NCBI GenBank assembly: GCA_041651395.1
Contig: JBAZJI010000001.1
Location: 827,920 to 891,919, forward strand
Length of the DNA: 64,000 nt
From: Minisyncoccota bacterium
GTDB lineage: Bacteria; Patescibacteriota; Minisyncoccia; Minisyncoccales; JAGOPM01
Reading direction: 5' to 3'
The notes beneath the pieces were generated by a model. That model was not told where the DNA came from. It saw nothing but the letters and a program-made list of their open reading frames with translations, and made no database searches. The stretch's first letter is position 1. Every line of letters starts with the position of its first letter. Shown in pieces: positions 45,961-64,000 of this stretch. The position numbers and the translations under genes are program-made.

Positions 45961-46044
45961 TTTTCATCTTCGCCAAGGCAACGGCGGATGGCCAAAAAAA
46001 TCAAAAAGCCGAAAAACCATTCATTTTATTAGACATTTCGTTTA

Positions 46045-46073
46045 TTGATTTTTGAGCATTTTTATACTATAAT
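46045..46073 (+). promoter_or_regulatory. sigma70 promoter
   Basis: TTGATT (46045-50), 17-nt spacer, TATAAT (46068-73). Confidence 0.7.
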
Positions 46074-46122
46074 ATATATTGTAGTTATCAGCTACAATTT
46101 CACAATCAAATAAGGAGGATAA

Positions 46123-53184: not shown

Positions 53185-53320
53185 ATATTCCACGACTTAA
53201 AAATTATTTTCCCATTCCCTCGGGCCTTGGGAAAACGCCAACCATCCTTCCTTAAGGCGGCAGGTGGCATTAATAAAATTTAAGCCAATTCGGGCTTGAT
53301 TTTATTAGTGACTTCGTGCA

Positions 53321-53349
53321 TTGATTTTTTGCCATTTTTATGGTATAAT
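53321..53349 (+). promoter_or_regulatory. sigma70 promoter with extended -10
   Basis: TTGATT (53321-26), 17-nt spacer ending in TGg, TATAAT (53344-49). Confidence 0.75.
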
Positions 53350-53385
53350 ATATTATGTTCTAGAAAAACCAAATAGGAGGATTAC

Positions 53386-54540
53386 ATGGCTGAAAAGACC
53401 GAAAAATTTTCACCGTTTTTTAAGACCGCTTCCGGCTTAGCTCTTTTAGGCTTGACGCTTTATGCGCTGGTAATCATCGTCTCTGGTCTTCTCAGATCTC
53501 TTGCCACCGGCATTACGATCTTCGAAACCATTAGAGGCGATATTCTCATTGTCACGGGCCTACCTATATATTTTGCCGCCATCTTTATTATCAAGATTGT
53601 GGACAAATTTATGCCTCAGCCCGTGCCAGAGCCCATTGCCAAAGTTGAGCCGGAAATTCTGGATATTCCCGAAGCCTCATTGCTTGCGGATTTCCAGAAT
53701 TATCAAAGCGACCCTGGCCCGCAAGCCAGTGCCAACACCATCCTGACTTTTCAAATCGCGCAAAGCCACATCAAGAGAATCTCTGGTCAGTTGGCTAAAG
53801 TGGCCGCCTGCACCAAGGCTAAAGATTTGAAAAAGGAAAGGACTGTTTTGCTGGAATACGTAAACACGGCCTTTGGCGATATGCGCCAAGACCGCCCACC
53901 ACTGCAGGCCGTCGATCTCATCGAAAGGCTTTGCCACACTCTACTCAAGCTCCCGCTGGAAGCCATCAACCGCTATAAGCATTGGCAAAATGAAAGGAAT
54001 ATTCTACTGGGATTTTGCCGCCTTTATGCCGATGACAGCGTCCGCCTCGCCAAGCTCAAAGATATTATTTCCCTTTATGCGCCCGAGGATGACATTGTCT
54101 GGATCTTGGAAGAAATCAACAGTCAGCGTTGCTTAAAAGACGAGCAGGCCGAAATTAAAGAAATCTGGGCCACGTTTTGCAAAAACAAAAGCCTTTGCCC
54201 GGATAAACTTTGGGCCATGGAACAGATGCTTGATTTACGCCGACAGCTTCTCCGCTGGCGCTACGCCAAGGATGTTCGCGATGTTCCACCGCCGCTGGTG
54301 GCTCTTGCCGGGATAATGGAAATTGCCGGGCCACTTAACCCCAGTGATGCGGAAAGATTCAAAACTCTTTTCAATTCACTTTTCTTCAGGCAACCCAGCT
54401 ATCAAGAAGTGGCAAAAATCACCCCGCTCATCGACATTGAAGCCCCGCTAGCCGTCTGCCACAGACGCCACAAAGTTCTTAGGCATCCGCAAGATCCGAT
54501 TCCCGGAAACAAGAAGAAAAAGAAAAAAGGGAAAAAGTAA
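53386..54540 (+). CDS. 2-TM-anchored protein with large helical cytosolic domain and poly-Lys tail, orphan
   Basis: 384 aa. TAGGAGG is 6 nt upstream. There are two N-terminal TM helices. The C-terminus is GNKKKKKKGKK. Confidence 0.8.
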   Translation: MAEKTEKFSPFFKTASGLALLGLTLYALVIIVSGLLRSLATGITIFETIRGDILIVTGLPIYFAAIFIIKIVDKFMPQPVPEPIAKVEPEILDIPEASLLADFQNYQSDPGPQASANTILTFQIAQSHIKRISGQLAKVAACTKAKDLKKERTVLLEYVNTAFGDMRQDRPPLQAVDLIERLCHTLLKLPLEAINRYKHWQNERNILLGFCRLYADDSVRLAKLKDIISLYAPEDDIVWILEEINSQRCLKDEQAEIKEIWATFCKNKSLCPDKLWAMEQMLDLRRQLLRWRYAKDVRDVPPPLVALAGIMEIAGPLNPSDAERFKTLFNSLFFRQPSYQEVAKITPLIDIEAPLAVCHRRHKVLRHPQDPIPGNKKKKKKGKK

Positions 54541-54598
54541 ATCAGGTCTAAATAATCACTCCAAGACAACCGTAAATAAAGGCCGCCAAGGCCTAAAA

Positions 54599-54628
54599 AG
54601 CCCCCTCCCAAAGGGGGCTTGTTTTTTT
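54599..54628 (+). terminator. intrinsic terminator
   Basis: agccccct-cccaa-agggggct followed by tgTTTTTTT. Confidence 0.8.
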
Positions 54629-54682
54629 GAAAACTGATGGTATGTTGCATTGCGCATCTTTAATAACAAAAGGAGGCCCTAG

Positions 54683-55054
54683 ATGGCCGAAGACCAAACG
54701 CAACAACGCAAGAAAAAACTGTTGGCGGATTTCAGGCGTGCCATTGGGCGCCTGCGACGGAAACTACGGTGGTGGTTTTTATACACTATAAAACCTTTGG
54801 GCAATGGGATGGGCTATGTTATCGAAAAATTATTCGGAGACGATTCTCTGCTTTTTCTGGCCCTACTCACTAAGGAAGATAAGCTAAACTATGAAACCAA
54901 CCGCGAAGAAATCAGAGAAAAAGCCGAGGAAGAATTAGGAAAATTTTCTCGGGAAGATGGTGTCGAAGTTTGGGAGTCAAAACGCTGCAAAGAAAATTAT
55001 TTCGATTCCCAAAACCACGAAAGGAGAGGGGAATATCATGAGCAAAACAAATGA
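54683..55054 (+). CDS. highly charged 123-aa protein, orphan
   Basis: AAGGAGG is 8 nt upstream. It has a basic N-terminus (RKKKLLADFRRAIGRLRRKLRWW) and an acidic C-terminal half. Confidence 0.75.
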   Translation: MAEDQTQQRKKKLLADFRRAIGRLRRKLRWWFLYTIKPLGNGMGYVIEKLFGDDSLLFLALLTKEDKLNYETNREEIREKAEEELGKFSREDGVEVWESKRCKENYFDSQNHERRGEYHEQNK

Positions 55055-55313
55055 CGATAAACCCAAGCAAAAACTCCGGCAAGAACGTAAAAACGTTTTA
55101 ACCGGAGCTGTCATTTTCACTATCTTATTTCTGCTGGCGACCTGGTATCTGGTGAGCGTTACCTTGCCCGAAGAGCTGATTGTCAGTATCATCGGCACTG
55201 TTATTTGTTTAGTCATGGTGGTAGCCATTATCCTTACCGCTATCCGGCAGTTAGCAAAGCTCAAGGCAGAAGAAAAAGAACTCCAACAAAGCCAAATAGC
55301 GGCTCAAAATTAA
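55038..55313 (+). CDS. small membrane protein, 2 TM, orphan
   Basis: 91 aa from ATG 55038 with AAGGAGAGGGG upstream. It overlaps the 3' end of the previous gene by 17 nt. The track ORF starts at 54957. Confidence 0.72.
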   Translation: MSKTNDDKPKQKLRQERKNVLTGAVIFTILFLLATWYLVSVTLPEELIVSIIGTVICLVMVVAIILTAIRQLAKLKAEEKELQQSQIAAQN

Positions 55314-55322
55314 AAAATTACA

Positions 55323-55345
55323 AATGGGTTTAAGGCCCATTTTTG
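55323..55345 (+). terminator. intrinsic terminator
   Basis: aatggg-tttaagg-cccatt followed by a T-run. Confidence 0.7.
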
Positions 55346-55351
55346 TTTTCC

Positions 55352-55379
55352 TTGATTTTTTTGAAAATAATGATATAAT
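55352..55379 (+). promoter_or_regulatory. sigma70 promoter with extended -10
   Basis: TTGATT (55352-57), 16-nt spacer ending in TGa, TATAAT (55374-79). Confidence 0.72.
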
Positions 55380-55417
55380 ATAATCATCAAATTAAAAACT
55401 ACATAAGGAGGTAGAGC

Positions 55418-56272
55418 TTGAACAATAAAACTCAAAAAGTATTGATTTTTGGCGCCTCGTCGGGCTTTGGCTTGGCTACAGCCAAATTCCTTGATAAGCG
55501 AGATTATCAAGTCATCGGTACCAGCCGCAAAAATTTTTTCTGTTCTAACCCATTCGGGTTTGAAATGCTAAGTTGCGATATCAGCATCCCGCATACCGTG
55601 GCTTGGGCTATCAAGGAAGCGCATAACAAACTCGGAGGGCTTGATGCCATCATCAACTGCGCCGGGCACGGGCTATCAGGAACCAGCGAAACGGCCACGC
55701 GGGAACAAGCGCAAGGGCAATTTGATGCTAACTACTTTGGCGCCGTTAATGTGCTTAATTGCGCCCTGCAACTGGTTGCAGGCCAAAAAGAGCCGCCGCT
55801 CAAGCTGATCCAGATTAGTTCGATTGCCGCTGCAGTGGGCGTCCCTTTCCAGCCTTATTACTCTGCCAGTAAAGCAGCCATTGAAATGCATTTTGAATCG
55901 GTAGATCGCGAACTTCTGGGCCAAGCTCTGCAGCTTGTACTTATAGAGCCGGGGGATTTTGCAACCAATTTCACAATCAACAGGAAAAAAACAGCATGCT
56001 TAAAAACAACCTCTCGAGATGAAAAATCAATCTACAATTCCTTGCGCAACCTCGCCTGTGAAAGGGCCATAGGGGAAATGGAGCGCTCAGAACAAAACGG
56101 CAGCAACCCGCAGGACCTCGCCCGGCTTATCGCCCGCATTTTGCAAATGCGCCAACCAAAACTCCGCTACCATATCGGCAAACCCCTGGAAATTCTCGCC
56201 CTCTACCTCAAACCCTTGTTGCCCCAAAACACTTTTCGCAGCCTTATCCGCGACAATTACAAAATTAAATAG
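55418..56272 (+). CDS. short-chain dehydrogenase/reductase (SDR)
   Basis: 284 aa with a TTG start 6 nt after AAGGAGG. It has GASSGFG, NCAG and S..YSASK catalytic motifs. Confidence 0.9.
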   Translation: MNNKTQKVLIFGASSGFGLATAKFLDKRDYQVIGTSRKNFFCSNPFGFEMLSCDISIPHTVAWAIKEAHNKLGGLDAIINCAGHGLSGTSETATREQAQGQFDANYFGAVNVLNCALQLVAGQKEPPLKLIQISSIAAAVGVPFQPYYSASKAAIEMHFESVDRELLGQALQLVLIEPGDFATNFTINRKKTACLKTTSRDEKSIYNSLRNLACERAIGEMERSEQNGSNPQDLARLIARILQMRQPKLRYHIGKPLEILALYLKPLLPQNTFRSLIRDNYKIK

Positions 56273-56292
56273 CTTCCTTTGGAGGCTTTTTT
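56271..56292 (+). terminator. intrinsic terminator
   Basis: agcttcc-ttt-ggaggct followed by TTTTT. Confidence 0.65.
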
Positions 56293-56333
56293 CTTTATGG
56301 AAATTGTTTACTTAATTTGCTACCCTTACTTAT

Positions 56334-56405
56334 GCCCCTGTAGCTTAATGGATAGAGCACTGGTCTTCGGAACCGGTGATGCGGGTTCGATTCCTGCCAG
56401 GGGCA
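56334..56405 (+). tRNA. tRNA-Arg (anticodon TCG)
   Basis: Acceptor GCCCCTG/CAGGGGC, D-arm GCTT-AATGGATA-GAGC, anticodon arm CTGGT-CTTCGGA-ACCGG, T-arm GCGGG-TTCGATT-CCTGC. No CCA is encoded. Confidence 0.92.
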
Positions 56406-56419
56406 CTAATAAAAATAAT

Positions 56420-56680
56420 ATGACTACATTAACGGTAGTTAATATAAAATGCGGGGGATGCGAAAAAAGCATCACCTCGGCCGTAGAAAAACTTGGCGGC
56501 AAAAATATTGCAGTTGATGTCGCCAAACAGCAGATATCTTTTGAAGGAGGGGATATTGGCAAAATAAAAAAAGAGTTGGCTAAAATGGGCTACCCGGAGG
56601 CCAATAGCCCTGAAGCCAAAAGTCTTCTCAAAAAAGCCACCTCTTATGCCTCCTGCATGGTGGGAAGGTTGAAAAAATGA
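56420..56680 (+). CDS. heavy-metal-associated (HMA) domain protein, CopZ-like
   Basis: 86 aa from ATG 56420: MTTLTVVNIKCGGCEKSITSAVEKLGG.., with a CxxC metal site in a ferredoxin-like HMA layout. The track ORF (from 56279) runs through the tRNA. There is no SD, and the start is 14 nt after the tRNA. Confidence 0.85.
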   Translation: MTTLTVVNIKCGGCEKSITSAVEKLGGKNIAVDVAKQQISFEGGDIGKIKKELAKMGYPEANSPEAKSLLKKATSYASCMVGRLKK

Positions 56681-56689
56681 ACAAATAAA

Positions 56690-56716
56690 ACAGGCCTTAA
56701 GTAGGGCCTGTTTTAT
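56690..56716 (+). terminator. intrinsic terminator
   Basis: acaggcc-ttaagtag-ggcctgt followed by TTT. Confidence 0.75.
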
Positions 56717-56752
56717 TTGCTTTGGAATAAATTATTGTTATCATACTTTACA

Positions 56753-56809
56753 CTCCCGTAGTTGAATGGATACAACGAGGCCTGGCAAGCTGCAAGTGCA
56801 GGTTCGATT
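56753..56809 (+). pseudogene. 5' three-quarters copy of tRNA-Arg(CCG), ending at the T-loop, with an altered anticodon arm
   Basis: 56753-76 equals 56920-43 (24/24). 56789-809 equals 56957-77 (21/21). The 12-13 nt between them differ by 4 substitutions plus a 1-nt deletion (loop CTGGCAA versus CTCCGAA). No matching 3' acceptor strand is present. Confidence 0.8.
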
Positions 56810-56895
56810 ATTAGAAATACAAAATAAGCACAGCGAATTTTAATATTTCTCGTATGCCGGGTAATCCCGGCGCCTGCTGGAAACAGGAAGAGAAC
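56810..56895 (+). repeat. T-loop insert element, copy C (63-nt two-hairpin insert plus CCTGC plus aggaagagaac motif)
   Basis: It starts directly after TTCGATT. Hairpin 1 is agaaata(56813-19)/tatttct(56844-50). tatGCCGGG-taat-CCCGGC lies at 56853-71. CCTGC (56873-77) is complementary to the T-stem GCAGG. It is homologous to copies A and B at 61.75 kb. Confidence 0.75.
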
Positions 56896-56918
56896 ATGAC
56901 AACCAAATAGGTAAATAT

Positions 56919-56990
56919 GCTCCCGTAGTTGAATGGATACAACAGTGGCCTCCGAAGCTGCAAGTGCAGGTTCGATTCCTGCCGGGAGCA
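56919..56990 (+). tRNA. tRNA-Arg (anticodon CCG)
   Basis: Acceptor GCTCCCG/CGGGAGC, D-arm GTTG-AATGGATA-CAAC, anticodon arm GTGGC-CTCCGAA-GCTGC, T-arm GCAGG-TTCGATT-CCTGC. No CCA is encoded. Confidence 0.92.
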
Positions 56991-56996
56991 CAAACG

Positions 56997-57015
56997 ACCG
57001 GCAATTGCCGGTTTT
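56997..57015 (+). terminator. intrinsic terminator
   Basis: accggca-at-tgccggt followed by TTT. Confidence 0.7.
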
Positions 57016-57022
57016 GTCTTCC

Positions 57023-57051
57023 TTGACGCTTCACTCTTTTTATACAATAAT
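57023..57051 (+). promoter_or_regulatory. sigma70-like promoter
   Basis: TTGACG (57023-28), 17-nt spacer, AATAAT (57046-51). Confidence 0.4.
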
Positions 57052-57082
57052 GCCTCACTTAACAATTATATAAAGGAGGTTT

Positions 57083-57220
57083 ATGGCGGAGGATAAAACA
57101 GAAAGAACCTGTTACGTGAACAATGATTGCCAGAAATGCGAACAAAACAAATTTTGTTCTTGGGCCTTCCGGGAAGACTTAAACATAAAGAAACTTAGAC
57201 CTAAAAGGGATGATTCTTAG
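57083..57220 (+). CDS. 45-aa four-cysteine mini-protein; not in the ORF track
   Basis: AAGGAGG is 4 nt upstream. The product is MAEDKTERTCYVNNDCQKCEQNKFCSWAFREDLNIKKLRPKRDDS (C-x5-C-x2-C-x5-C). The stop lies 12 nt before the next gene. Confidence 0.6.
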   Translation: MAEDKTERTCYVNNDCQKCEQNKFCSWAFREDLNIKKLRPKRDDS

Positions 57221-57232
57221 AAAGGAGGAAAA

Positions 57233-57625
57233 ATGCCCTATATCACAAAAAGCGCCAGGGATAAGCTCGACCCTCATATCGAAGCTATTGCCCAAGCCAT
57301 CAGCGAGCAAACAAAAGAAACAAAAGACGAACTATCTCTGGCGGGCATGGTTAACTATGTCTGCACGCGCATCGCTCTTTTAAGCTTCCGAAAAGTACTG
57401 GGCAAATTCCGCTACAAATGGATAGCCCTATTCACGGGAATTCTTGAAAACATCAAACAAGAATTCCACGATAGGGTAGTTAAACCATACGAAGCGGAAG
57501 CCAACTGGAAGCATGGAGATCTGCCCGAGTTTATCCAAGCAGCAAAAGATCTAAACGAGGAAATAGAATTTTCCAGAAATTCCAAAGCCAAAACACGCCC
57601 CAGGCCCCCCAAAAATAGCCCCTAA
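57233..57625 (+). CDS. conserved hypothetical protein (family I recall from phage and bacterial genomes; PYE..GD motif)
   Basis: 130 aa. AAGGAGG is 5 nt upstream. It begins MPYITKSARDKLDP...GMVNYVCTRI...GILENIKQEFHDRVVKPYEAEANWKHGDL. The family memory is unverified. Confidence 0.8.
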   Translation: MPYITKSARDKLDPHIEAIAQAISEQTKETKDELSLAGMVNYVCTRIALLSFRKVLGKFRYKWIALFTGILENIKQEFHDRVVKPYEAEANWKHGDLPEFIQAAKDLNEEIEFSRNSKAKTRPRPPKNSP

Positions 57626-57637
57626 AAGGGCTTTTTT
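57617..57637 (+). terminator. intrinsic terminator
   Basis: agccc-ctaaaa-gggct followed by TTTTT. The stop codon lies in the loop. Confidence 0.65.
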
Positions 57638-57653
57638 CTTTAGTCGCCCCCCC

Positions 57654-57681
57654 TTGATTTATATTAGAATTTCAGTATAAT
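57654..57681 (+). promoter_or_regulatory. sigma70 promoter
   Basis: TTGATT (57654-59), 16-nt spacer, TATAAT (57676-81). Confidence 0.7.
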
Positions 57682-57747
57682 ATAACCAGATGTTTTATAG
57701 CAAAATACACTGATCGGCACACATAAAAATTACTCAAGGAGGTAAGT

Positions 57748-60700
57748 ATGAATAAGAACAAGATCGCCGCGGCTATCACTGGGATTCTTTGTTTGGCTCA
57801 AATGCTGCAATTTGCTCCGGTGCGAGCGCTTACAGTTTGCCCTAGCGGCAACTGCAGCATTTTGATCGAAGAAGTGTTGTTAAAAGTGGATGGGCAAGTC
57901 ATTTCTGATAATGACAAGTCCGCGATGATGACTAATGTTCCTTTTGAACGGGTTTTTCTCCCCGGGACGCAGATGGAGATATCCGTGAAAGCTTCCGGTC
58001 CGATTAATGATGTCGCTTATTGGTCCCTCTATTGGGGCACTAATGACACGCCATCGTTGATAAACAGCGACCGGACAATCTGCGCAAAATGCCCAGGAGA
58101 AAAATATGTTCCCGAAGGCGCACCGGTTTTTAATGTTAAATGGGCTGTCCCTAAGGATGCCAAAAAGTATTCCAAAATTTGGATTCAGTCCTTTGACCAA
58201 ACCGGGAAAACCATGGGCGGAGCTAATACTCGCCCGCTGGTGCACAGCCAAACAATCATCAAACCGAACTGCTATGTTTCAGAAATAAAAGATGTAACAG
58301 AGAGTAGCGCTACGGCCATTATTCACTTTGCAAGGCCGGGGAGTGTTTGGCCCTTAAACTCTTGGCTGGAGCTAAGAAGTGATTCGGGACAATATTTTCC
58401 CAACCACAGCCAACCGCTGGGAATGAAAACATTCCAAAATGCCCAAGGGCTTACTGAAAACCAAAATAAGCTTGCCGTTGTTTTGAAAGATCTTCTCCCT
58501 AATTCCAAATATTGGGTAAAAGCCATTGCGGCTAGTGAGGGAGGATATTGTGAGAGCAGGGAAGTAGAGCTAATAACTCTTTGCGCCTTGCCGCAGCTTA
58601 AAACTTTACGCTGCTCCAAAATCGATTGGAACCAAAACAGTTGGAATCAAACCGACAATTCAGCCTACTTAACTTGCGAGATAACATCCTTTGGCGGAGA
58701 TAACTATATGGAAGTTATGGTACAGGGGTTCAATATCAATGCACCCCGGGAACGCTTTGGCACAACTTGGCAGCGTCTTGAATGCAGCCAATTTGACCAA
58801 CTGCCAAGTGAATTTACATTGCAAGCCGGCAAAGGATTTACAGCGGAGGAAGTTTATGACTTCGAATTCTTAGCGCGCAACAGCCGTGGAGAGATTGCTA
58901 GTGGAGGACATAAATACTTTCCGCCACCCTTTCCCGGATACAAACCAGAAATTGTTACGGGCGGGGTTAAAAAAGTAACTCCAGACTCAGTCGAGTTGGT
59001 CATTAAAGTTGTCTCCATTTCTCATCCAACAAAAATTTGGCTGGAAATCACTGACCAAAAATTTGGAGATACTTGGGATAGAGGGAAGTATACTCCCGAC
59101 CCCAATGGCAAATCCATACTCAGCGATTCGCTGGAAGTGGACTTGCCCGGAGAATACACCATTACTGTCAAAAATCTGGAACACAATAGAGGCATGGAAA
59201 AACCACCCTCCTGGGTCAGAAAAGAATACCCTCATCTCAAATACACACCAGGCTATTTATTCAAAGCCCATGCCCTAGACTTAACCACTAACGAAACGGA
59301 CAAGGGCACTGACTGGTCAAGATTGGAAACTTATCGCACTCTCCAAAAACCCAAGGTCACCACCAAGCAACCCATAAACATCACTTACAAAAGTGCGGAT
59401 TTGGGGGCAATGGTTGATTTCTCAGGTTTTAGCAGTAAATGCGTAATCTTCTTCAAGTATTGGCAAAAAGGCAAAATAGCCCAAACCATTCAAGAAACAT
59501 TCCCCCGAATCCAAGTCGAAACTCGCTATGATTACGTAGATTTTGAGCTCATGGAAGCCACACGCTTTACGGTTGAAAATCTCGAGCCATACACTGTTTA
59601 CTGTTTCCAAGCCTATGTAATCAATGGCCTAACAAACAGCACGGGAGAGCAAATTGAAACGCCAGCGGCCAATATTCAAGAATTCCGGACCTTGTGGGGA
59701 GATAAAAATTCTATTTACGATACTCCCTTAATCCAGACAACCGGAGTTTCCCAAACTGGGCCAAACACCTTTTGCCTGCAAGGAAAGCTCTTAGACTTTG
59801 GCGGGTCAGATTGGGTCGAAGTCACGATTGAATTTTGGGGTTTAAGCACACACTTTGAAGGAGAACAATCCTTTATTTATGTAGGCCTATACCGCAAAGA
59901 AAATTGGCAAGACAGATACCCGACATTCGATGTTTATCGCAGTAATCTGGTCTTTGGCAAATCGTTCGTCTTCCGCTTCACCGCGCGCTCTAGCGCGGGT
60001 ACCACCAAGGGATTTTTAATCGATTCCTCCGGCCAAAAAGTTGAGGGGGGATTCTGGAAATTCCAAACCGACCCTCTGCCTGGAGATCAGGTTAAACCAG
60101 AAATATTTCTGAAAGGCATTAAAATTCTAATGCCCGACCAAACTGAAGAAAACCCCACGCCCCAAGCCATCATCACTATCAATGTCCAGAATATGGGCAC
60201 ACCACCACTTCCTTGGTTGGATCTCCAATACCTTTGGACTCGATATAGTGGTTCGGTAATCGCAGCTTGGCCTAATACTTGGCAATACAAATCAGAAAAG
60301 ATCCGAATAACTAAAGCTGGCGAATATTCCTTCCTAATAAATAAAGGTTTGGAATTTGGCCGAAGTTTCTTTATAAGCGTGAATGCGGAAAATGGAAGTA
60401 TGTTAACCTGGATGGTGCCAGAAAGTAAATTTTTCCCGCACTATTTCACCACTGACCACCTTCCGCCGCTTATCAAAGCCACTAACCCCACCTTCATCAA
60501 TAAACAAAACACCCTGGCTAATACTCAAGTAATACACCCGGGGACCAACGAATGGGGAACTTTCTTTAGTTGGTTTGAAGTCGTAACTTTCCGCGGATCT
60601 GTCGATGCAATAAATAAAGAAATTACGGTCTTGCCCGACACTCTAAACCCTAACAACCAATTGCTCACCCGCACACTCTTTATGACCCCCAAAATATCCA

Positions 60701-60912
60701 GAAAAGGCACTAAGCCGTATTCCTTCAGTATCAATGCCGATCCAGGACTCTTAAATCTACCCGACGAACAATCCGGAAGTAAAATAATTTCCACTTACTA
60801 TGCTTACCGCGCATGGGCTCAAAACCAAGGCGGGCAATACCATACAAGCTGGATAGTGGTTACTGATGATACATTCCAAAGGATGGATAAGATGCCTTGG
60901 GAAAAACCCTAA
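57748..60912 (+). CDS. large secreted multi-Ig/FN3-like repeat protein
   Basis: 1054 aa. AAGGAGG is 6 nt upstream. The signal peptide is ..LQFAPVRA/LT. Beta-sandwich-type modules recur (..LTCEITSFGGDNYMEVMVQGF.., ..CLQGKLLDFGGSDWVEVTIEFWG.., ..GAMVDFSGFSSKCVIFFKYW..). There is no C-terminal anchor. Confidence 0.88.
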   Translation: MNKNKIAAAITGILCLAQMLQFAPVRALTVCPSGNCSILIEEVLLKVDGQVISDNDKSAMMTNVPFERVFLPGTQMEISVKASGPINDVAYWSLYWGTNDTPSLINSDRTICAKCPGEKYVPEGAPVFNVKWAVPKDAKKYSKIWIQSFDQTGKTMGGANTRPLVHSQTIIKPNCYVSEIKDVTESSATAIIHFARPGSVWPLNSWLELRSDSGQYFPNHSQPLGMKTFQNAQGLTENQNKLAVVLKDLLPNSKYWVKAIAASEGGYCESREVELITLCALPQLKTLRCSKIDWNQNSWNQTDNSAYLTCEITSFGGDNYMEVMVQGFNINAPRERFGTTWQRLECSQFDQLPSEFTLQAGKGFTAEEVYDFEFLARNSRGEIASGGHKYFPPPFPGYKPEIVTGGVKKVTPDSVELVIKVVSISHPTKIWLEITDQKFGDTWDRGKYTPDPNGKSILSDSLEVDLPGEYTITVKNLEHNRGMEKPPSWVRKEYPHLKYTPGYLFKAHALDLTTNETDKGTDWSRLETYRTLQKPKVTTKQPINITYKSADLGAMVDFSGFSSKCVIFFKYWQKGKIAQTIQETFPRIQVETRYDYVDFELMEATRFTVENLEPYTVYCFQAYVINGLTNSTGEQIETPAANIQEFRTLWGDKNSIYDTPLIQTTGVSQTGPNTFCLQGKLLDFGGSDWVEVTIEFWGLSTHFEGEQSFIYVGLYRKENWQDRYPTFDVYRSNLVFGKSFVFRFTARSSAGTTKGFLIDSSGQKVEGGFWKFQTDPLPGDQVKPEIFLKGIKILMPDQTEENPTPQAIITINVQNMGTPPLPWLDLQYLWTRYSGSVIAAWPNTWQYKSEKIRITKAGEYSFLINKGLEFGRSFFISVNAENGSMLTWMVPESKFFPHYFTTDHLPPLIKATNPTFINKQNTLANTQVIHPGTNEWGTFFSWFEVVTFRGSVDAINKEITVLPDTLNPNNQLLTRTLFMTPKISRKGTKPYSFSINADPGLLNLPDEQSGSKIISTYYAYRAWAQNQGGQYHTSWIVVTDDTFQRMDKMPWEKP

Positions 60913-60923
60913 ACCAAATAAAT

Positions 60924-60949
60924 GCGAAGACTTATGTCTTCGCTTTTTT
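60924..60949 (+). terminator. intrinsic terminator
   Basis: gcgaagac-ttat-gtcttcgc followed by TTTTTT. Confidence 0.85.
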
Positions 60950-60951
60950 AT

Positions 60952-60979
60952 TTGCAGGGCAGGGGACGCATGGTATAAT
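60952..60979 (+). promoter_or_regulatory. sigma70 promoter with extended -10 driving a probable leaderless mRNA
   Basis: TTGCAG (60952-57), 16-nt spacer ending in TGg, TATAAT (60974-79). The ATG at 60987 is only 7 nt downstream. Confidence 0.65.
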
Positions 60980-60986
60980 ATTTTTA

Positions 60987-61529
60987 ATGAAAAATAAATC
61001 TGCCTATTTTTTTACCGCGCTTTTAGCCACCTTCTTTTTATTTTCTATAGCCTATGGAGCTACGAGCACCCCCAAAGATTTGGATTTTGATTTGCCCAAA
61101 CCTTCCGCCCAGACACCGATAGCCTGCGAGGCTTGGAAAGGCGGCCTGCTGGAGGGTGTTTGCAAAGATCCCAGCAAATTAGAATTTTGCCACCTTTTTG
61201 TTTTGCTGGACAATATTATCAACTGGATAATGTTTGTGGCTATGCCCATAGCAGCCTTTCTCCTTTTGGTTTGGGGAGGGTTTAATTATATTATTTATCT
61301 GGAAAACCCCGCCAATGCCAAAAAATTCTGGGATACGGCCAAAGCTCTTTTGTGGGGCGCTATCGTAGTTTATGCCGCCTATGCCGTGGTTAATCTCTTC
61401 CTGATTATTGTCGGCGCCAAAATTTTCTCACCGGAAGCCGGATTGGGACAATGGTTCAAATTCCCTTGCGGAACCGGCGCGCCGCCGGCTAGCACTTCCA
61501 CCCCGCCAACCGGAGTTAGTGAATTCTAA
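60987..61529 (+). CDS. T4SS-pilin-like (TrbC/VirB2-type) membrane protein, tentative
   Basis: 180 aa from ATG 60987. It has a signal peptide ..FSIAYGA and two TM helices flanking GGFNYIIYLENPANAKKFWDTAK, a pattern I recall from CPR type IV secretion system pilin proteins. The C-terminus is Pro/Thr-rich. Confidence 0.7.
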   Translation: MKNKSAYFFTALLATFFLFSIAYGATSTPKDLDFDLPKPSAQTPIACEAWKGGLLEGVCKDPSKLEFCHLFVLLDNIINWIMFVAMPIAAFLLLVWGGFNYIIYLENPANAKKFWDTAKALLWGAIVVYAAYAVVNLFLIIVGAKIFSPEAGLGQWFKFPCGTGAPPASTSTPPTGVSEF

Positions 61530-61551
61530 ATTCTCCGATTAATAATGCATT

Positions 61552-61577
61552 AGCCAAAGTTTTCACTTTGGCTTTTT
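61552..61577 (+). terminator. intrinsic terminator
   Basis: agccaaagt-tttc-actttggct followed by TTTT. Confidence 0.8.
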
Positions 61578-61590
61578 GTTTAATAGTGCC

Positions 61591-61619
61591 TTGCCAAAAT
61601 ATCAAAAAAATGCTATTGT
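61591..61619 (+). promoter_or_regulatory. sigma70-like promoter for tRNA-Lys
   Basis: TTGCCA (61591-96), 17-nt spacer ending in TGc, TATTGT (61614-19). Confidence 0.5.
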
Positions 61620-61632
61620 CTTTTTTGTTCTA

Positions 61633-61703
61633 GCCTCCGTAGTTCAACGGTAGAACAGAGGACTCTTAATCCTTTAACGAGGGTTCGATTCCTTCCGGAG
61701 GCA
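61633..61703 (+). tRNA. tRNA-Lys (anticodon CTT)
   Basis: Acceptor GCCTCCG/CGGAGGC, D-arm GTTC-AACGGTA-GAAC, anticodon arm GAGGA-CTCTTAA-TCCTT, T-arm GAGGG-TTCGATT-CCTTC. No CCA is encoded. Confidence 0.92.
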
Positions 61704-61707
61704 CATA

Positions 61708-61746
61708 CAAAGTAAAAGACGCCACATGTTGGCGTCTTTTACTTTG
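61708..61746 (+). other. 17-bp perfect hairpin immediately 3' of tRNA-Lys
   Basis: caaagtaaaagacgcca-catgt-tggcgtcttttactttg. There is no U-tract after the stem, so its role (terminator or processing site) is unclear. Confidence 0.7.
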
Positions 61747-61749
61747 TGT

Positions 61750-61851
61750 CTCCGAAAGGAGAGAACGAAGTTCGATTTAATAGATTTTCTTGGCGAGCAA
61801 GGCGAACCTAAGAAAATCATGTATGCCGAGTAATCTCGGCCCTTCCGGAGG
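61750..61851 (+). repeat. T-loop insert element, copy A (tRNA-Lys-derived mini acceptor/T-arm plus 63-nt two-hairpin insert)
   Basis: ctccg..aggagagaac-gaag-TTCGATT(61771-77) is followed by a 63-nt insert. The insert contains gattttctt(61783-91)/aagaaaatc(61810-18) and tatGCCGAG-taat-CTCGGC (61822-40). It ends in CCTTC-CGGAGG, which equals the 3' end of tRNA-Lys. Confidence 0.75.
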
Positions 61852-61950
61852 AAAAAGGAGAGAACACAGTGTGATTTATTAGACTTTCAAGCGAACAACG
61901 TGAGCTTAGAAAATCTTATATGCCGCGTATCGCGGCGGCTACCGGAGAAG
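61852..61950 (+). repeat. T-loop insert element, copy B (more diverged)
   Basis: aaggagagaac-acag-TGTGATT is followed by a 62-nt insert. The insert contains agactttc/gaaaatct and tatGCCGCG-tat-CGCGGC (61919-36). It ends in ct-ac-CGGAGA. Confidence 0.7.
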
Positions 61951-61967
61951 GAAAATAATACCAGCCA

Positions 61968-61991
61968 GAAGGGCTTAAAGCCTTCGTTTTT
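61968..61991 (+). terminator. intrinsic terminator
   Basis: gaagggc-ttaaa-gccttc followed by gTTTTT. Confidence 0.7.
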
Positions 61992-62007
61992 GCTATCAAA
62001 AGCCCTC

Positions 62008-62036
62008 TTGCAAAAGATAGAAAAATCAGGTATAAT
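62008..62036 (+). promoter_or_regulatory. sigma70 promoter of rpsO
   Basis: TTGCAA (62008-13), 17-nt spacer, TATAAT (62031-36). This leaves a ~65-nt leader before ATG 62105. Confidence 0.72.
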
Positions 62037-62104
62037 TAAATACCTTCGAAACAGCTGGAATGGGGCCTGCTCGCCCTAGGAAAGCACAAGTTTTTATAGA
62101 AAAT

Positions 62105-62368
62105 ATGCTTAAAACAGAAAAGAAGCAAAAAATCATTAAAGGCGTTCAGACGCACGATACGGATACCGGCTCGCCCGAAGTCCAAATCGCTGTTCTTACC
62201 GAACAGATAGAAAAGCTTTTGCAGCACTTGGATTCACATAAAAAAGATTTCCACTCCAAGCGCGGTCTCCTGAAGATGGTTATGAAGCGCAAAAAACTTC
62301 TGAATTATCTTAAGAGCGAAAGCGTTGAACGGTTTGAAAAGATCTCCAAAAAGATCGGCCTTAAATAA
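62105..62368 (+). CDS. rpsO: 30S ribosomal protein S15
   Basis: 87 aa from ATG 62105: ..[50 protein letters not shown].. The length matches S15. The upstream ATG 62060 would add 15 non-conserved residues. Confidence 0.93.
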
Positions 62369-62374
62369 AACCTT

Positions 62375-62406
62375 AAGCCCCGCTTAAACGCGGGGCTTGG
62401 ATTTTT
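62375..62406 (+). terminator. intrinsic terminator/attenuator after rpsO
   Basis: aagccccgc-ttaaac-gcggggctt followed by ggaTTTTT. Confidence 0.7.
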
Positions 62407-62428
62407 CAAAATGTTAACTTAAAAAATT

Positions 62429-62977
62429 ATGGATGCCAAACACAAAAACCAAAGGGTGGCGGTATTTATAGACGTGCAAAACCTCTATTATTCCGCAAAA
62501 AACCTTTTTGGTAAGAAAGTTGATTTTGGCTCAATTGTCAAAACCGCAGTAGCGGGGAGGCAATTAGTCCGCGCATTTGCCTATGTGGTGCGCACTGAAG
62601 GCGGGGCTGAAAAGCCTTTCCACGAAGCGCTCCAAAAACTAGGCATTGAAATCCGCGTGCGTGACCTTCAGGAATATCCCGGAGGGCTAAAAAAAGCGGA
62701 TTGGGATGTCGGCATTACGGTAGATGCTATCCGCATCGCTAATAATGTCGATACTATTATTTTAGTCTCGGGAGATGGGGATTTTCTCCAATTGGTGGAA
62801 TACCTGCAAAACCAAGGCAAGAGAGTGGAAGTTATTGCCTTTGGCCGAACAGGTTCCTCCCGCCTCAAAGATATTTGCGATGACTTTACCGATTTAGAAA
62901 AGGAACAAGATAAATATCTGCTTGATTACGAGAGCGCGGCCAAAGTTCCCAAACCGAAAAGATTTAACAAACAATAA
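62429..62977 (+). CDS. NYN-domain (LabA/DUF88-like) predicted RNase
   Basis: 182 aa with RVAVFIDVQNLYYS...VSGDGDFLQLVEYLQNQGKRVEVIAF, the typical LabA/NYN layout. Confidence 0.85.
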   Translation: MDAKHKNQRVAVFIDVQNLYYSAKNLFGKKVDFGSIVKTAVAGRQLVRAFAYVVRTEGGAEKPFHEALQKLGIEIRVRDLQEYPGGLKKADWDVGITVDAIRIANNVDTIILVSGDGDFLQLVEYLQNQGKRVEVIAFGRTGSSRLKDICDDFTDLEKEQDKYLLDYESAAKVPKPKRFNKQ

Positions 62978-62986
62978 AATTAATTT

Positions 62987-63013
62987 AGCCTCCCGGCCGG
63001 GCCGGGTAAGGCT
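62987..63013 (+). other. GC-rich hairpin without U-tract in the NYN-pnp spacer
   Basis: agcc-t-cccggc-cgg-gccggg-taa-ggct, 26 nt upstream of the pnp start. Confidence 0.55.
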
Positions 63014-63038
63014 GTCAACAAACCAAACGTAAAAATAT

Positions 63039-64000
63039 ATGTTCTACGATAAAGAATACTCAATGGATTTTGCCGGACGCCAATTAAAAGTCCGCACCAA
63101 TGTAGCGCAACAGGCGCACGGCTCATGCTGGATAGAATACGGGGAAACCTCCACAATGGCGGCTTCTACAATGAGCACTAACGAAACTGTCCAAGATTTT
63201 TTTCCTCTTACTGTAGAGTATCAGGAAAGATTTTATGCCGCGGGCAAAATTTTAGGCTCGCGCTTCACTCGCCGCGAGGGCAGGGGAACCAATAAGATGA
63301 TTTTAACCGGCCGCTTGATAGACCGCATTATCAGGCCGCTTTTCCCTGAGAGTTTTACCCAAGAGACTCAAGTAATTTTAACCACTCTTTCTTGGGATGC
63401 GCAGAACGCCCCGGTTTTCACCGGTGCGCTTTCCGCCTCTCTTTCTTTGGGAATTTCTAAAATTCCGTGGAATGGTCCGATTGCCTGCGTGCAAGTCGGC
63501 AATGTGGAGGGCCAATTTATTTTGAACCCCTCTTACGAACAACTGGAAAAATCCAATATTAAGCTGACTTTGGGCGGATACGAAAAGAATGGCCAGCTTC
63601 TTATTAATATGATCGAATGCATCTCTGATGAAGTTTCTGAGGAGGTAGTATCAGAAGCCTGTAAATTCGCCAGCCCATACTTGAAACAGCTGATTGATTT
63701 CCAAAAACAAATAATCGCTGATTGCGGGCAAGAAAAATATATTCCCGCCAATGTTTTCCCGGAAGCGGAAATGGAACAAAAGATCCATGAATTTTTGGGA
63801 GATAAACTTGGTTCCACGATGGAATCTTTTGTGGGCAAGGAACTGATGGCTAAACTTGAAGAGTTAAAAGAGCAAACTATTGCGGCCATGAAGCAGCAAT
63901 ACCCCGATGAAGATTGCAAAAAACTTTTAACTAACTGGTTTGAGCGCGAGTTAGATTACGCTTTTCATAAATTAGCGTTAGAAAAAGGTAAAAGGGCCGA
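63039..64000 (+). CDS. pnp: polyribonucleotide nucleotidyltransferase (PNPase), 5' part (runs off window end)
   Basis: My translation from ATG 63039 is open to 64000 and is not in the ORF track. It reads MFYDKEYSMDFAGRQLKVRTNVAQQAHGSCWIEYGETS...DFFPLTVEYQERFYAAGKILGSRFTRREGR...LIDRIIRPLFP, the PNPase N-terminal RNase PH domain motifs. Confidence 0.9.
   Translation, partial: MFYDKEYSMDFAGRQLKVRTNVAQQAHGSCWIEYGETSTMAASTMSTNETVQDFFPLTVEYQERFYAAGKILGSRFTRREGRGTNKMILTGRLIDRIIRPLFPESFTQETQVILTTLSWDAQNAPVFTGALSASLSLGISKIPWNGPIACVQVGNVEGQFILNPSYEQLEKSNIKLTLGGYEKNGQLLINMIECISDEVSEEVVSEACKFASPYLKQLIDFQKQIIADCGQEKYIPANVFPEAEMEQKIHEFLGDKLGSTMESFVGKELMAKLEELKEQTIAAMKQQYPDEDCKKLLTNWFERELDYAFHKLALEKGKRA

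Follow-up and report, generated by a model that had tools for sequence, protein, structure and literature searches.

The DNA analysed here (the window) is a 64,000-nt stretch from the genome of an ultra-small bacterium of the CPR, and genes for a CCA-adding enzyme, S15, PNPase and a T4SS-pilin-like protein lie near the locus under study. An intact tRNA-Arg(CCG) gene is preceded on the same strand by a full-length pseudo-copy of itself (56752-56885), which is split by a 63-nt insert, hereafter the cassette. The features of this module are as follows.

56717..56744, plus strand: promoter-like site upstream of pseudo-tRNA-Arg (TTGCTT, 16-nt spacer, TGT-TATCAT with an extended -10), read from sequence
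56752..56809, plus strand: 5' part of pseudo-tRNA-Arg (tRNA nt 1-60), from sequence alignment
56810..56872, plus strand: 63-nt cassette between T-loop nt 60 and T-stem nt 61, from fold, covariation and CM R1 (73 bits)
56873..56885, plus strand: 3' part of pseudo-tRNA-Arg (T-stem 3' strand, acceptor 3' strand, discriminator), cctgcTggAaAca
56886..56918, plus strand: spacer between pseudo-copy and intact tRNA-Arg, beginning GGAAGAGAAC, which resembles the GGAGAGAAC head of the units at tRNA-Lys
56919..56991, plus strand: intact tRNA-Arg(CCG), called by ARAGORN and the Rfam tRNA model (63.8 bits), with no CCA encoded
56996..57013, plus strand: intrinsic-terminator-like hairpin after the intact tRNA-Arg, from the terminator scan

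A 330-nt stretch around the module is identical in the ENA assembly (a 951-kb contig) and in a Logan assembly with a different accession, and orthologous modules were found in more than 10 contigs from other samples. An assembly chimera or other artefact, which the original prediction had named as something that would undo it, is refuted by this identity of independent assemblies together with the orthologues in many samples.

Anatomy of the pseudo-tRNA and its transcription context

The 5' part of the pseudo-copy contains the acceptor 5' strand, D-arm, variable loop, T-stem 5' strand and T-loop of the intact gene, identical except at position 1, which is A (56752) in place of G. Alignment confirmed the coordinates given in the original prediction, along with its two blocks of identity (56753-56776 against 56920-56943, 24/24 nt; 56789-56809 against 56957-56977, 21/21 nt), its four substitutions and one deletion in the anticodon arm, and the 63-nt, two-hairpin nature of the insert. 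In the anticodon arm, CAAC-AGTGGCCTCCGAA of the intact gene has become CAAC-GAGGCCTGGCAA: A26 is deleted, T28 is replaced by A and the anticodon CCG by GGC, while C32, U33, A37 and A38 of the loop are unchanged. The copy had also been described as a 5' fragment (the first 57 nt of the tRNA) followed by a tggaaac unable to pair with the acceptor strand, and here the alignment disagrees. The copy is full length, as the sequence beyond the cassette (cctgctggaaaca, 56873-56885) matches the 3' end of the intact tRNA (cctgccgggagca) at 10 of 13 positions, with three transitions, and the 3' end of the tRNA in relatives (cctgctgggagca) at 11 of 13. The supposedly unpairable heptamer is the tRNA's own 3' strand with transitions, and it still pairs at four of seven acceptor positions (five to six of seven in relatives). 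The acceptor pairs that are kept number 4/7 in the window, 5/7 in the related lineage L010 and 6/7 in lineages L019 and L020, and the losses are uncompensated; the 3' strands of the relatives' pseudo-copies have decayed to cctgctggaagca (L019, L020) and cctgctgggaaag (L010).

ARAGORN made no call at 56752-56885, including with its intron and pseudogene options, and the Rfam tRNA model (RF00005) did not match the pseudo-copy at E ≤ 10. When the cassette was removed in silico, ARAGORN at default settings called a tRNA-Ala(GGC) in L010, L019 and L020 and left the window copy uncalled; the cloverleaf is only partly decayed. The pseudo-copy carries an A.G mismatch at 28-42 and lacks nt 26. Alanine identity requires G3.U70 and arginine identity requires C35. 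Since the pseudo-copy has U3-A70 and G at position 35, neither alanine nor arginine identity is expected of it. RNAalifold on the 5' half prefers a non-cloverleaf fold in which CGAGGCCUG is paired with CAGGUUCG, so that the T-loop of the pseudo-copy may not behave as a T-loop. No bulge-helix-bulge complementarity was seen between the two cassette junctions and the insert has no Rfam intron match; its 63 nt fall well short of the size of a group I intron. From its sequence, the pseudo-copy does not appear to be a working tRNA.

The promoter-like site upstream of the pseudo-copy was not listed by the consensus promoter scan (its first hexamer matches at 3/6), and its predicted start lies at about 56751-56752. 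An equivalent block (TTGAA..AAATTGC.TAATATGGTTTAC) lies before the pseudo-copy in L010, L019 and L020; in lineage L021 it stands ahead of a single tRNA-Arg(CCG). A scan of the spacer between the pseudo-copy and the intact tRNA-Arg (56886..56918) found neither promoter nor terminator. If the promoter call is right, the pseudo-copy would thus be the 5' leader of the tRNA transcript.

The two-hairpin cassette and the tRNA-Lys array

The cassette, which begins ATTAGA and ends CGGCG, is flanked by TTCGATT on its 5' side and CCTGC on its 3' side, and consists in order of an ATTAG junction, hairpin 1, a CGTATG linker and hairpin 2. Hairpin 1 (56813-56850) is long and AT-rich, with 13+2 bp and an apical A/GA..GA bracket, and hairpin 2 (56856-56871) is a short GC stem (GCCGGG/CCCGGC) with the loop TAAT; the fold of the Arg cassette has z = -3.25. 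Across 12 distinct units from five lineages, 94.8% of cells in hairpin 1 are paired and both sides change in 11 of the 15 pairs, a result that none of 500 shuffles equalled and for which slid controls reached at most 50%. The stem of hairpin 2 occurs as GCCGGG, GCCGCC, GCCGCGC, GCCGAG, GCCGCG, GCTGC and GTCGGG, and all seven variants are complementary. Conservation across units resides in the junction strands, GTTCGATT-ATTAG and TGTATG (GTTCGA.TTATTAG, TTGTATG), and in the apical GA..GA bracket. Together these patterns make it very likely that selection maintains the hairpin shape of the cassette. Mobile elements that depend on a hairpin should show covariation among their paralogous copies as well. 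Closed by the T-stem, the predicted structure has the look of a three-way-junction RNA. The stems of hairpin 1 are almost purely Watson-Crick (163/174 cells), and the two G.U against four A.C on the tRNA strand mean that wobble statistics favour neither RNA nor one strand; a role as a single-stranded DNA hairpin is not separable from an RNA role by wobble asymmetry. Nested extra hairpins are inserted in hairpin 2 or the linker in L019 and in unit B' of L010.

The only matches in Rfam 15 (cmscan of window region 54000-64000 at E ≤ 10 and of the L010 and L019 loci at E ≤ 1) were tRNAs. These scans gave no match to RtT RNA (RF00391) at either threshold and no tmRNA or YrlA, and ARAGORN found no tmRNA at the locus or at the related loci scanned. 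A hammerhead or other small ribozyme was considered and rejected, there being no core motifs and no Rfam match. A blastn search of the cassette against phages and plasmids returned nothing relevant, and a pattern scan of viral contigs returned only matches that, read individually, were due to chance (all ≤21 bits by CM R1). The same kind of scan found one true relative (CAZQSQ010000004.1) and one chance match among genome contigs, and two chance matches among metagenome contigs, the latter scan being non-exhaustive, as it missed element-bearing JGI contigs such as L009. Run with filters off over the 64-kb window (∼7% of the genome), CM R1 found three copies, all at tRNA-Arg(CCG) or tRNA-Lys(CTT), and no cassette at the four other window tRNAs that share the GTTCGATT T-loop. 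No description of the cassette or the pseudo-tRNA element was found in the literature on CPR tRNA-like elements, T-loop introns and RtT.

The two copies at tRNA-Lys(CTT) form a short array between that gene and rpsO.

61633..61704, plus strand: intact tRNA-Lys(CTT), called by ARAGORN and the Rfam tRNA model
61708..61746, plus strand: palindromic, terminator-like hairpin with an A-tract and a T-tract, between tRNA-Lys and the array, read from sequence and unlisted by the terminator scan
61748..61851, plus strand: Lys unit 1, a pseudo-tRNA-Lys whose anticodon arm is missing (R1, 76.5 bits)
61852..61947, plus strand: Lys unit 2, a more degenerate copy (R1, 62.8 bits; cassette at about 61876-61937)
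61968..61985, plus strand: terminator-like hairpin closing the array, from the terminator scan, upstream of the rpsO promoter (62008-62036)

Lys unit 1 is made up of gtctccg (acceptor 5' strand), ggagagaac (a D-arm remnant), gaag-ttcgatt (T-stem and T-loop), the cassette (61778-61840) and ccttccggagg, which is identical to the 3' strand of tRNA-Lys; its fold (z = -3.87) has an acceptor/T-like stem that closes the unit. Lys unit 2 has a T-loop-like gtgtgattt and the 3' strand ggctaccggag. The units at tRNA-Lys repeat the architecture of the Arg unit: an acceptor-like stem closes them and their T-loop carries the cassette, with the anticodon arm removed. A counterpart of the palindrome after tRNA-Lys, with compensatory changes, is found in every lineage, and as the Lys units lie downstream of this strong terminator-like structure, their transcription is doubtful. 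Among strains with near-identical flanking genes, the arrays hold four units (A-B-A-B'), three, two, two and one, and L023 has truncated units. This variation from one to four units, some of them truncated, suggests that the Lys arrays behave like dispensable repeats. In the next clade out (NYN protein 76% identical), tRNA-Lys is present without any units.

Three other readings of the repeats were rejected. An autoregulatory leader of S15 (rpsO) does not fit an array that is set off from rpsO by a terminator and a promoter, with another gene lying between in L021. A type III toxin-antitoxin RNA array fares no better, given that the array ends in a terminator and the next gene is rpsO with its own promoter. 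Against a coding repeat, the Arg module overlaps no called gene and the repeats of L010 recur every 197 nt, a length not divisible by three.

Probable duplication and gene conversion at the Arg locus

Syntenic loci of relatives were retrieved via neighbouring proteins. The Arg module was found in four lineages: the window, L010 (with eight other contigs), L019 and L020. It lies on the minus strand in the L010 group and in L020, and as in the window in L019; the L010 lineage has an extra 275-aa open reading frame (ORF) beside it. The cassette sits at the identical position in all four. The loop CTGGCAA is the same in 4/4 lineages and 16 of 17 anticodon-arm positions are invariant, against only about a quarter of the promoter and spacer columns. 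In L019 there is, in addition, an unrelated GC-rich insertion, ∼100 nt long, that comes with a 19-20-nt duplicate of the 3' end of tRNA-Arg(TCG).

The tRNA-Arg(CCG) of a fifth lineage, L021, stands alone, between the promoter block ..AAATTGCGTAAGATGGTTTAC and the terminator CAATAATAAAAGAGCC. Its promoter block matches the block before the pseudo-copy in L020 and L010, and its terminator matches the one that follows the intact gene in L020. From these shared ends it would follow that the ancestral gene's 5' end now belongs to the pseudo-copy and its 3' end to the intact gene, and the Arg locus would then amount to an internal tandem duplication plus the cassette.

The intact tRNA-Arg genes of the four lineages differ at five positions, and the pseudo-copy agrees with the gene beside it in 4/4 lineages at positions 7, 45 and 46 and in 3/4 at position 16. 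Such lineage-specific substitutions, common to a pseudo-copy and its neighbour, point to concerted evolution by gene conversion. The tRNA-Arg of the window has a compensated G7-C66 pair; the pseudo-copy has G7 but the ancestral T66, and its 3' part would hence lie outside the conversion tract. Duplication followed by gene conversion is very probably the correct account of the locus, and conversion with the adjacent intact tRNA would be the reason why 45 nt (24/24 and 21/21) were spared. The altered anticodon arm lies within the converted tract yet persists in all four lineages. Conversions that restored CCG in the copy, or destroyed CCG in the gene, may have been selected against; alternatively, conversion tracts may be very short. 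Selection on the altered anticodon arm seems likely. With two 57-nt direct repeats 110 nt apart, the module should be easily deleted, and we take its persistence in four lineages as retention.

These comparisons bear on several parts of the original prediction. Its argument that random decay would not leave such a pattern was borne out, gene conversion explaining the spared 45 nt, and so was its proposal that the insert belongs to a family also present at tRNA-Lys, where there are two copies. A very recent recombination product, or an engineered one, is not supported: four diverged lineages share the GGC loop and the cassette, and in L020 the neighbouring DUF6899 protein is only 57% identical to that of the window. 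A plain tandem duplication without an insert, which would have spoken against the prediction, was not seen, and the relatives carrying the duplication have the insert. The suggestion of a selected tRNA-like module survives in part: selection is plausible for the anticodon arm and the cassette, given their conservation and covariation, but function as a tRNA or intron-bearing tRNA is not supported, with acceptor decay uncompensated and no ARAGORN or Rfam call.

Possible structured RNA or mobile DNA, and known systems

The best explanation, to which we give about an even chance, is a clade-specific family of tRNA-derived structured repeats whose Arg copy is transcribed as a leader of tRNA-Arg. 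An ancestral promoter-tRNA-Arg(CCG)-terminator gene would have been partly duplicated in tandem, giving rise to the pseudo-copy, and the upstream copy is disabled as a tRNA by the change from CCG to GGC, the loss of nt 26 and the continuing decay of its acceptor stem. Lying between the sole recognizable promoter and the functional tRNA, it would be transcribed as a leader of ∼167 nt, which 5' maturation of the tRNA, presumably by RNase P, would remove. The 57 nt upstream of the cassette would have been repeatedly homogenized with the functional gene by short-tract conversion, with the altered arm and the cassette kept. The cassette may then serve as a structured RNA module, made from tRNA transcripts, in protein binding, processing or stability. 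That the cassette acts as RNA at all we rate at slightly below an even chance; no partner protein or target for it was identified. A stronger version, with less in its favour, is that the module represents a new class of element, either a tRNA-scaffolded three-way-junction non-coding RNA cut from tRNA transcripts or a cassette homing to the T-loop/T-stem junction, in which, either way, a decoding-dead pseudo-tRNA is kept and its anticodon protected from conversion; we regard this as tentative and on balance rather unlikely.

The main rival is a non-autonomous mobile DNA cassette that inserts at the tRNA T-loop/T-stem junction, its single-stranded hairpins being recognized by an enzyme of the HUH or tyrosine recombinase type encoded elsewhere; the pseudo-tRNAs would be disrupted targets and the intact genes surviving duplicates. 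Its strongest support is insertion at the identical position (60/61) in the Arg and Lys backbones, with flanks that match the local tRNA. Also consistent with it are the retention of hairpin shape while stem sequence varies in near-pure Watson-Crick pairing, as in REP or attC-like DNA hairpins, the copy-number dynamics between near-identical strains, the nested extra hairpins of L019 and L010 unit B', and the insertion at tRNA-Arg(TCG) in L019, which marks tRNA T-loops and 3' ends as insertion targets in this clade. However, with only three copies at two tRNA genes in 64 kb, and none at the four tRNAs with the GTTCGATT T-loop, the cassette is sparse for a mobile element. No terminal inverted repeats or target-site duplication surround it, and its two hairpins are dissimilar, whereas the ends of IS200/IS605 elements are alike. 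No transposase, integrase or recombinase was found among the neighbouring genes of the window or the relatives' neighbourhoods; Pfam and PHROGs gave no recombinase or nuclease signal for the 275-aa ORF of the L010 lineage, a 45-aa ORF or the DUF6899 protein, and no family match at all for the 275-aa ORF. The Arg insertion, moreover, is orthologous in four lineages, as expected of one old event and not of ongoing activity. We therefore consider a mobile cassette unlikely, if the most credible of the alternatives.

Less probable still is that the repeats are scars of site-specific integration. On this reading, integrative elements that recombined within the T-loop would have left behind partial tRNA copies of the att type; the cassette would be what an internal deletion spared of an element arm, and the units, multiplied by unequal crossing-over, would have no function. 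The partial copies do run from the T-loop and adjoin their parent tRNA, as in attL/attR pairs, and the duplicated 3' end of tRNA-Arg(TCG) in L019 resembles such a scar; modules occur in both orientations, and a 275-aa ORF was gained beside the module in the L010 lineage. Yet the cassette does not have a copy of the T-loop core at each end, the Arg locus duplicates the 5' part of the tRNA (57 nt), including a promoter-proximal copy, and there is no integrase among the neighbouring genes. A neutral scar would also not keep covarying helices, junctions and an invariant altered arm while spacers diverged.

For a pseudogene in neutral decay, or an assembly artefact, the probability is smaller again. 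The acceptor 3' strand decays differently in each lineage and the Lys arrays contain truncated units, as neutral decay would predict, but the anticodon arm and cassette are much better conserved than the spacers around them; an artefact is contradicted by the independent assemblies and the orthologues noted above. That the pseudo-copy is a working tRNA(GGC), recruited by an anticodon switch and bearing a new bacterial T-loop intron or a retained extra arm, is very unlikely: the tRNA-Ala(GGC) calls after in silico removal of the cassette in 3/4 lineages, the change of all three anticodon bases within an otherwise kept loop and the intact D-arm, T-stem and T-loop stand against the window copy that stays uncalled even when spliced, the uncompensated acceptor losses, the missing identity elements, the 28-42 mismatch and absent nt 26, an insert without bulge-helix-bulge pairing, group I size or Rfam match, and Lys units that have no anticodon arm whatever.

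Several known systems resemble the tRNA-derived repeats in part, and a conserved cassette at the T-loop junction is absent from all of the nearest ones compared. The E. coli tyrT-linked repeats and RtT RNA (Rfam RF00391), reportedly described by Bosl and Kersten in 1991, are likewise tandem units directly downstream of a tRNA gene, each with the 3' end of that tRNA, as the Lys units carry the 3' strand of tRNA-Lys in one to four units per lineage. The tyrT repeats are said to be co-transcribed, released by tRNA processing, variable in copy number and poorly understood in function, which we count as a likeness. In contrast to them, the units described here have no sequence or structure match to RtT and hold a two-hairpin cassette within the T-loop, one unit lies upstream of its own tRNA as a near-full-length pseudo-tRNA, and the host is a CPR bacterium. 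Archaeal tRNAs have non-canonical T-arm introns that are spliced at bulge-helix-bulge motifs, and these too interrupt the tRNA at or near position 59/60-61; here, however, the host is bacterial, bulge-helix-bulge pairing is missing, the exons make no sound tRNA and the Lys units lack an anticodon arm. tmRNA and YrlA similarly combine an acceptor/T-arm-like minihelix with extra structured domains and a loss of decoding, but in the present units the extra domain lies in the T-loop and does not replace the anticodon arm, and the acceptor stem is unconserved.

Remnants of att sites, arranged in tandem, are known from tRNA and tmRNA genes, the ssrA repeats of Dehalococcoides (PMC3146451) being one instance. 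Those of the T-loop crossover class resemble the units at hand in that partial copies from the T-loop adjoin the parent gene, sometimes in tandem; they differ from them in that neither an integrase nor an element body is present here, the cassette splits the T-arm and the Arg duplicate is the 5' part. REP, MITE and IS200-IS605 palindromes share with the cassette short hairpins, covarying stems and a GTAT motif 5' of a GC-rich palindrome. The cassette copies, unlike these, are undispersed (three in 64 kb, at two tRNAs) and have no inverted terminal repeats or target duplications, and the window with up to 10 kb of flanking sequence showed neither RAYT nor TnpA. As in the concerted evolution of duplicated tRNA and rRNA genes and their pseudogenes, the pseudo-copy shares lineage-specific substitutions with its neighbour; what differs is that conversion here does not reach beyond the 57 nt preceding the cassette and consistently spares the 12-nt altered anticodon region, which lies inside that tract.

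To our knowledge, few non-coding RNAs have been described in CPR bacteria. Should the cassette prove to be a functional RNA, these genome-reduced cells would have a novel route to small RNAs, with a tRNA as the frame; if it is mobile, the T-loop junction of tRNA genes would be a new insertion specificity. Either way, the locus offers a clean natural case of short-tract conversion between a tRNA gene and an adjacent pseudo-copy, a conversion that ends where an insertion begins and leaves an altered anticodon untouched. For annotation, the units are missed by ARAGORN and the Rfam models, yet their long exact tRNA matches may mislead analyses of att sites or tRNA copy number.

Predicted alternative pairing and a mini-ORF in the Arg module

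Through the changes in its anticodon arm, the pseudo-tRNA-Arg (window positions 56775-56809, and orthologous positions in the relatives) has acquired CGAGGCCUG. This sequence can pair with its complement CAGGUUCG, comprising the T-stem 5' strand and T-loop of the same pseudo-copy. RNAalifold predictions favour a CGAGGCCUG/CAGGUUCG helix over the cloverleaf; covariation for this helix was not observed because all positions are invariant. With two CCUG and two CAGG motifs, two mutually exclusive pairing schemes are possible. The spacer between the pseudo-copy and the intact tRNA-Arg(CCG) (56886-56918) contains a Shine-Dalgarno-like GGAAGAG followed by a four-codon mini-ORF (ATG ACA ACC AAA TAG). 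This mini-ORF was found only in the window and is not conserved in the three relatives' lineages with an Arg module (L010, L019 and L020), and on this sequence comparison is therefore probably fortuitous.

Orientation of the tRNA modules

Orientation of the Arg and Lys tRNA modules (promoter, tRNA and terminator) was compared at the following loci:

Window 56919-56991, intact tRNA-Arg(CCG)
Window 61633-61704, tRNA-Lys(CTT)
L021:35-109, locus in a lineage with a single tRNA-Arg(CCG)
L021:5218-5289, second locus in that lineage
L024:6353-6424, further locus compared

Although the flanking genes are the same, both modules point one way in some lineages and the opposite way in others; these small modules have therefore flipped in place on more than one occasion. 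Inverted repeats bordering the modules were looked for in vain. The Arg module is inverted in the L010 lineage, where it adjoins an extra ORF of 275 amino acids (4649-5476) without matches in Pfam or PHROG. Between 56681 and 56750, the window lacks the block containing this ORF (L010:4475-5500). Upstream, the ORF has a TTGACA/-10 promoter and a 5' UTR of ∼110 nt that is rich in GC and may be structured; the UTR has no match in Rfam.

Insertions in cassettes and behind tRNA-Arg(TCG)

Single cassettes (the two-hairpin inserts) have gained additional, nested hairpins: in L010, the linker of unit B' in the Lys array holds cctgcctgccggtaggcagg (L010:10871-10890), and in L019, hairpin 2 of the Arg cassette holds atcccgacttggcgggat (L019:1672-1706). 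In the Lys unit of L019, hairpin 2 is replaced by cacctgcctgcc, a fragment of the nested cctgcctgccggtaggcagg hairpin of L010 unit B'. Elsewhere in L019, the stretch directly behind tRNA-Arg(TCG) (1024-1096), L019:1097-1218, holds a GC-rich insert of ∼100 nt, foreign in base composition to this AT-rich genome, and beyond the insert a second copy of the tRNA T-arm and 3' end (gagggcgaatccctcagggcgcac). The insert has no counterpart at window 56407-56420 and, judged from sequence, looks like a separate insertion or an att-type scar at the tRNA T-loop/3' end.

Other repeats in the window

A 63-nt intergenic block (TTSATTTTATTAG...TTGATTTTT...TATAATATAT) occurs twice (46020-46082 and 53296-53358; 79% identity), each time upstream of a gene, the two genes being unrelated; it resembles a shared promoter or upstream element. 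Direct repeats of 96-128 nt (87-89% identity), a few hundred bases apart at 4834-6103, probably reflect repetition within a single large gene for a repetitive protein.
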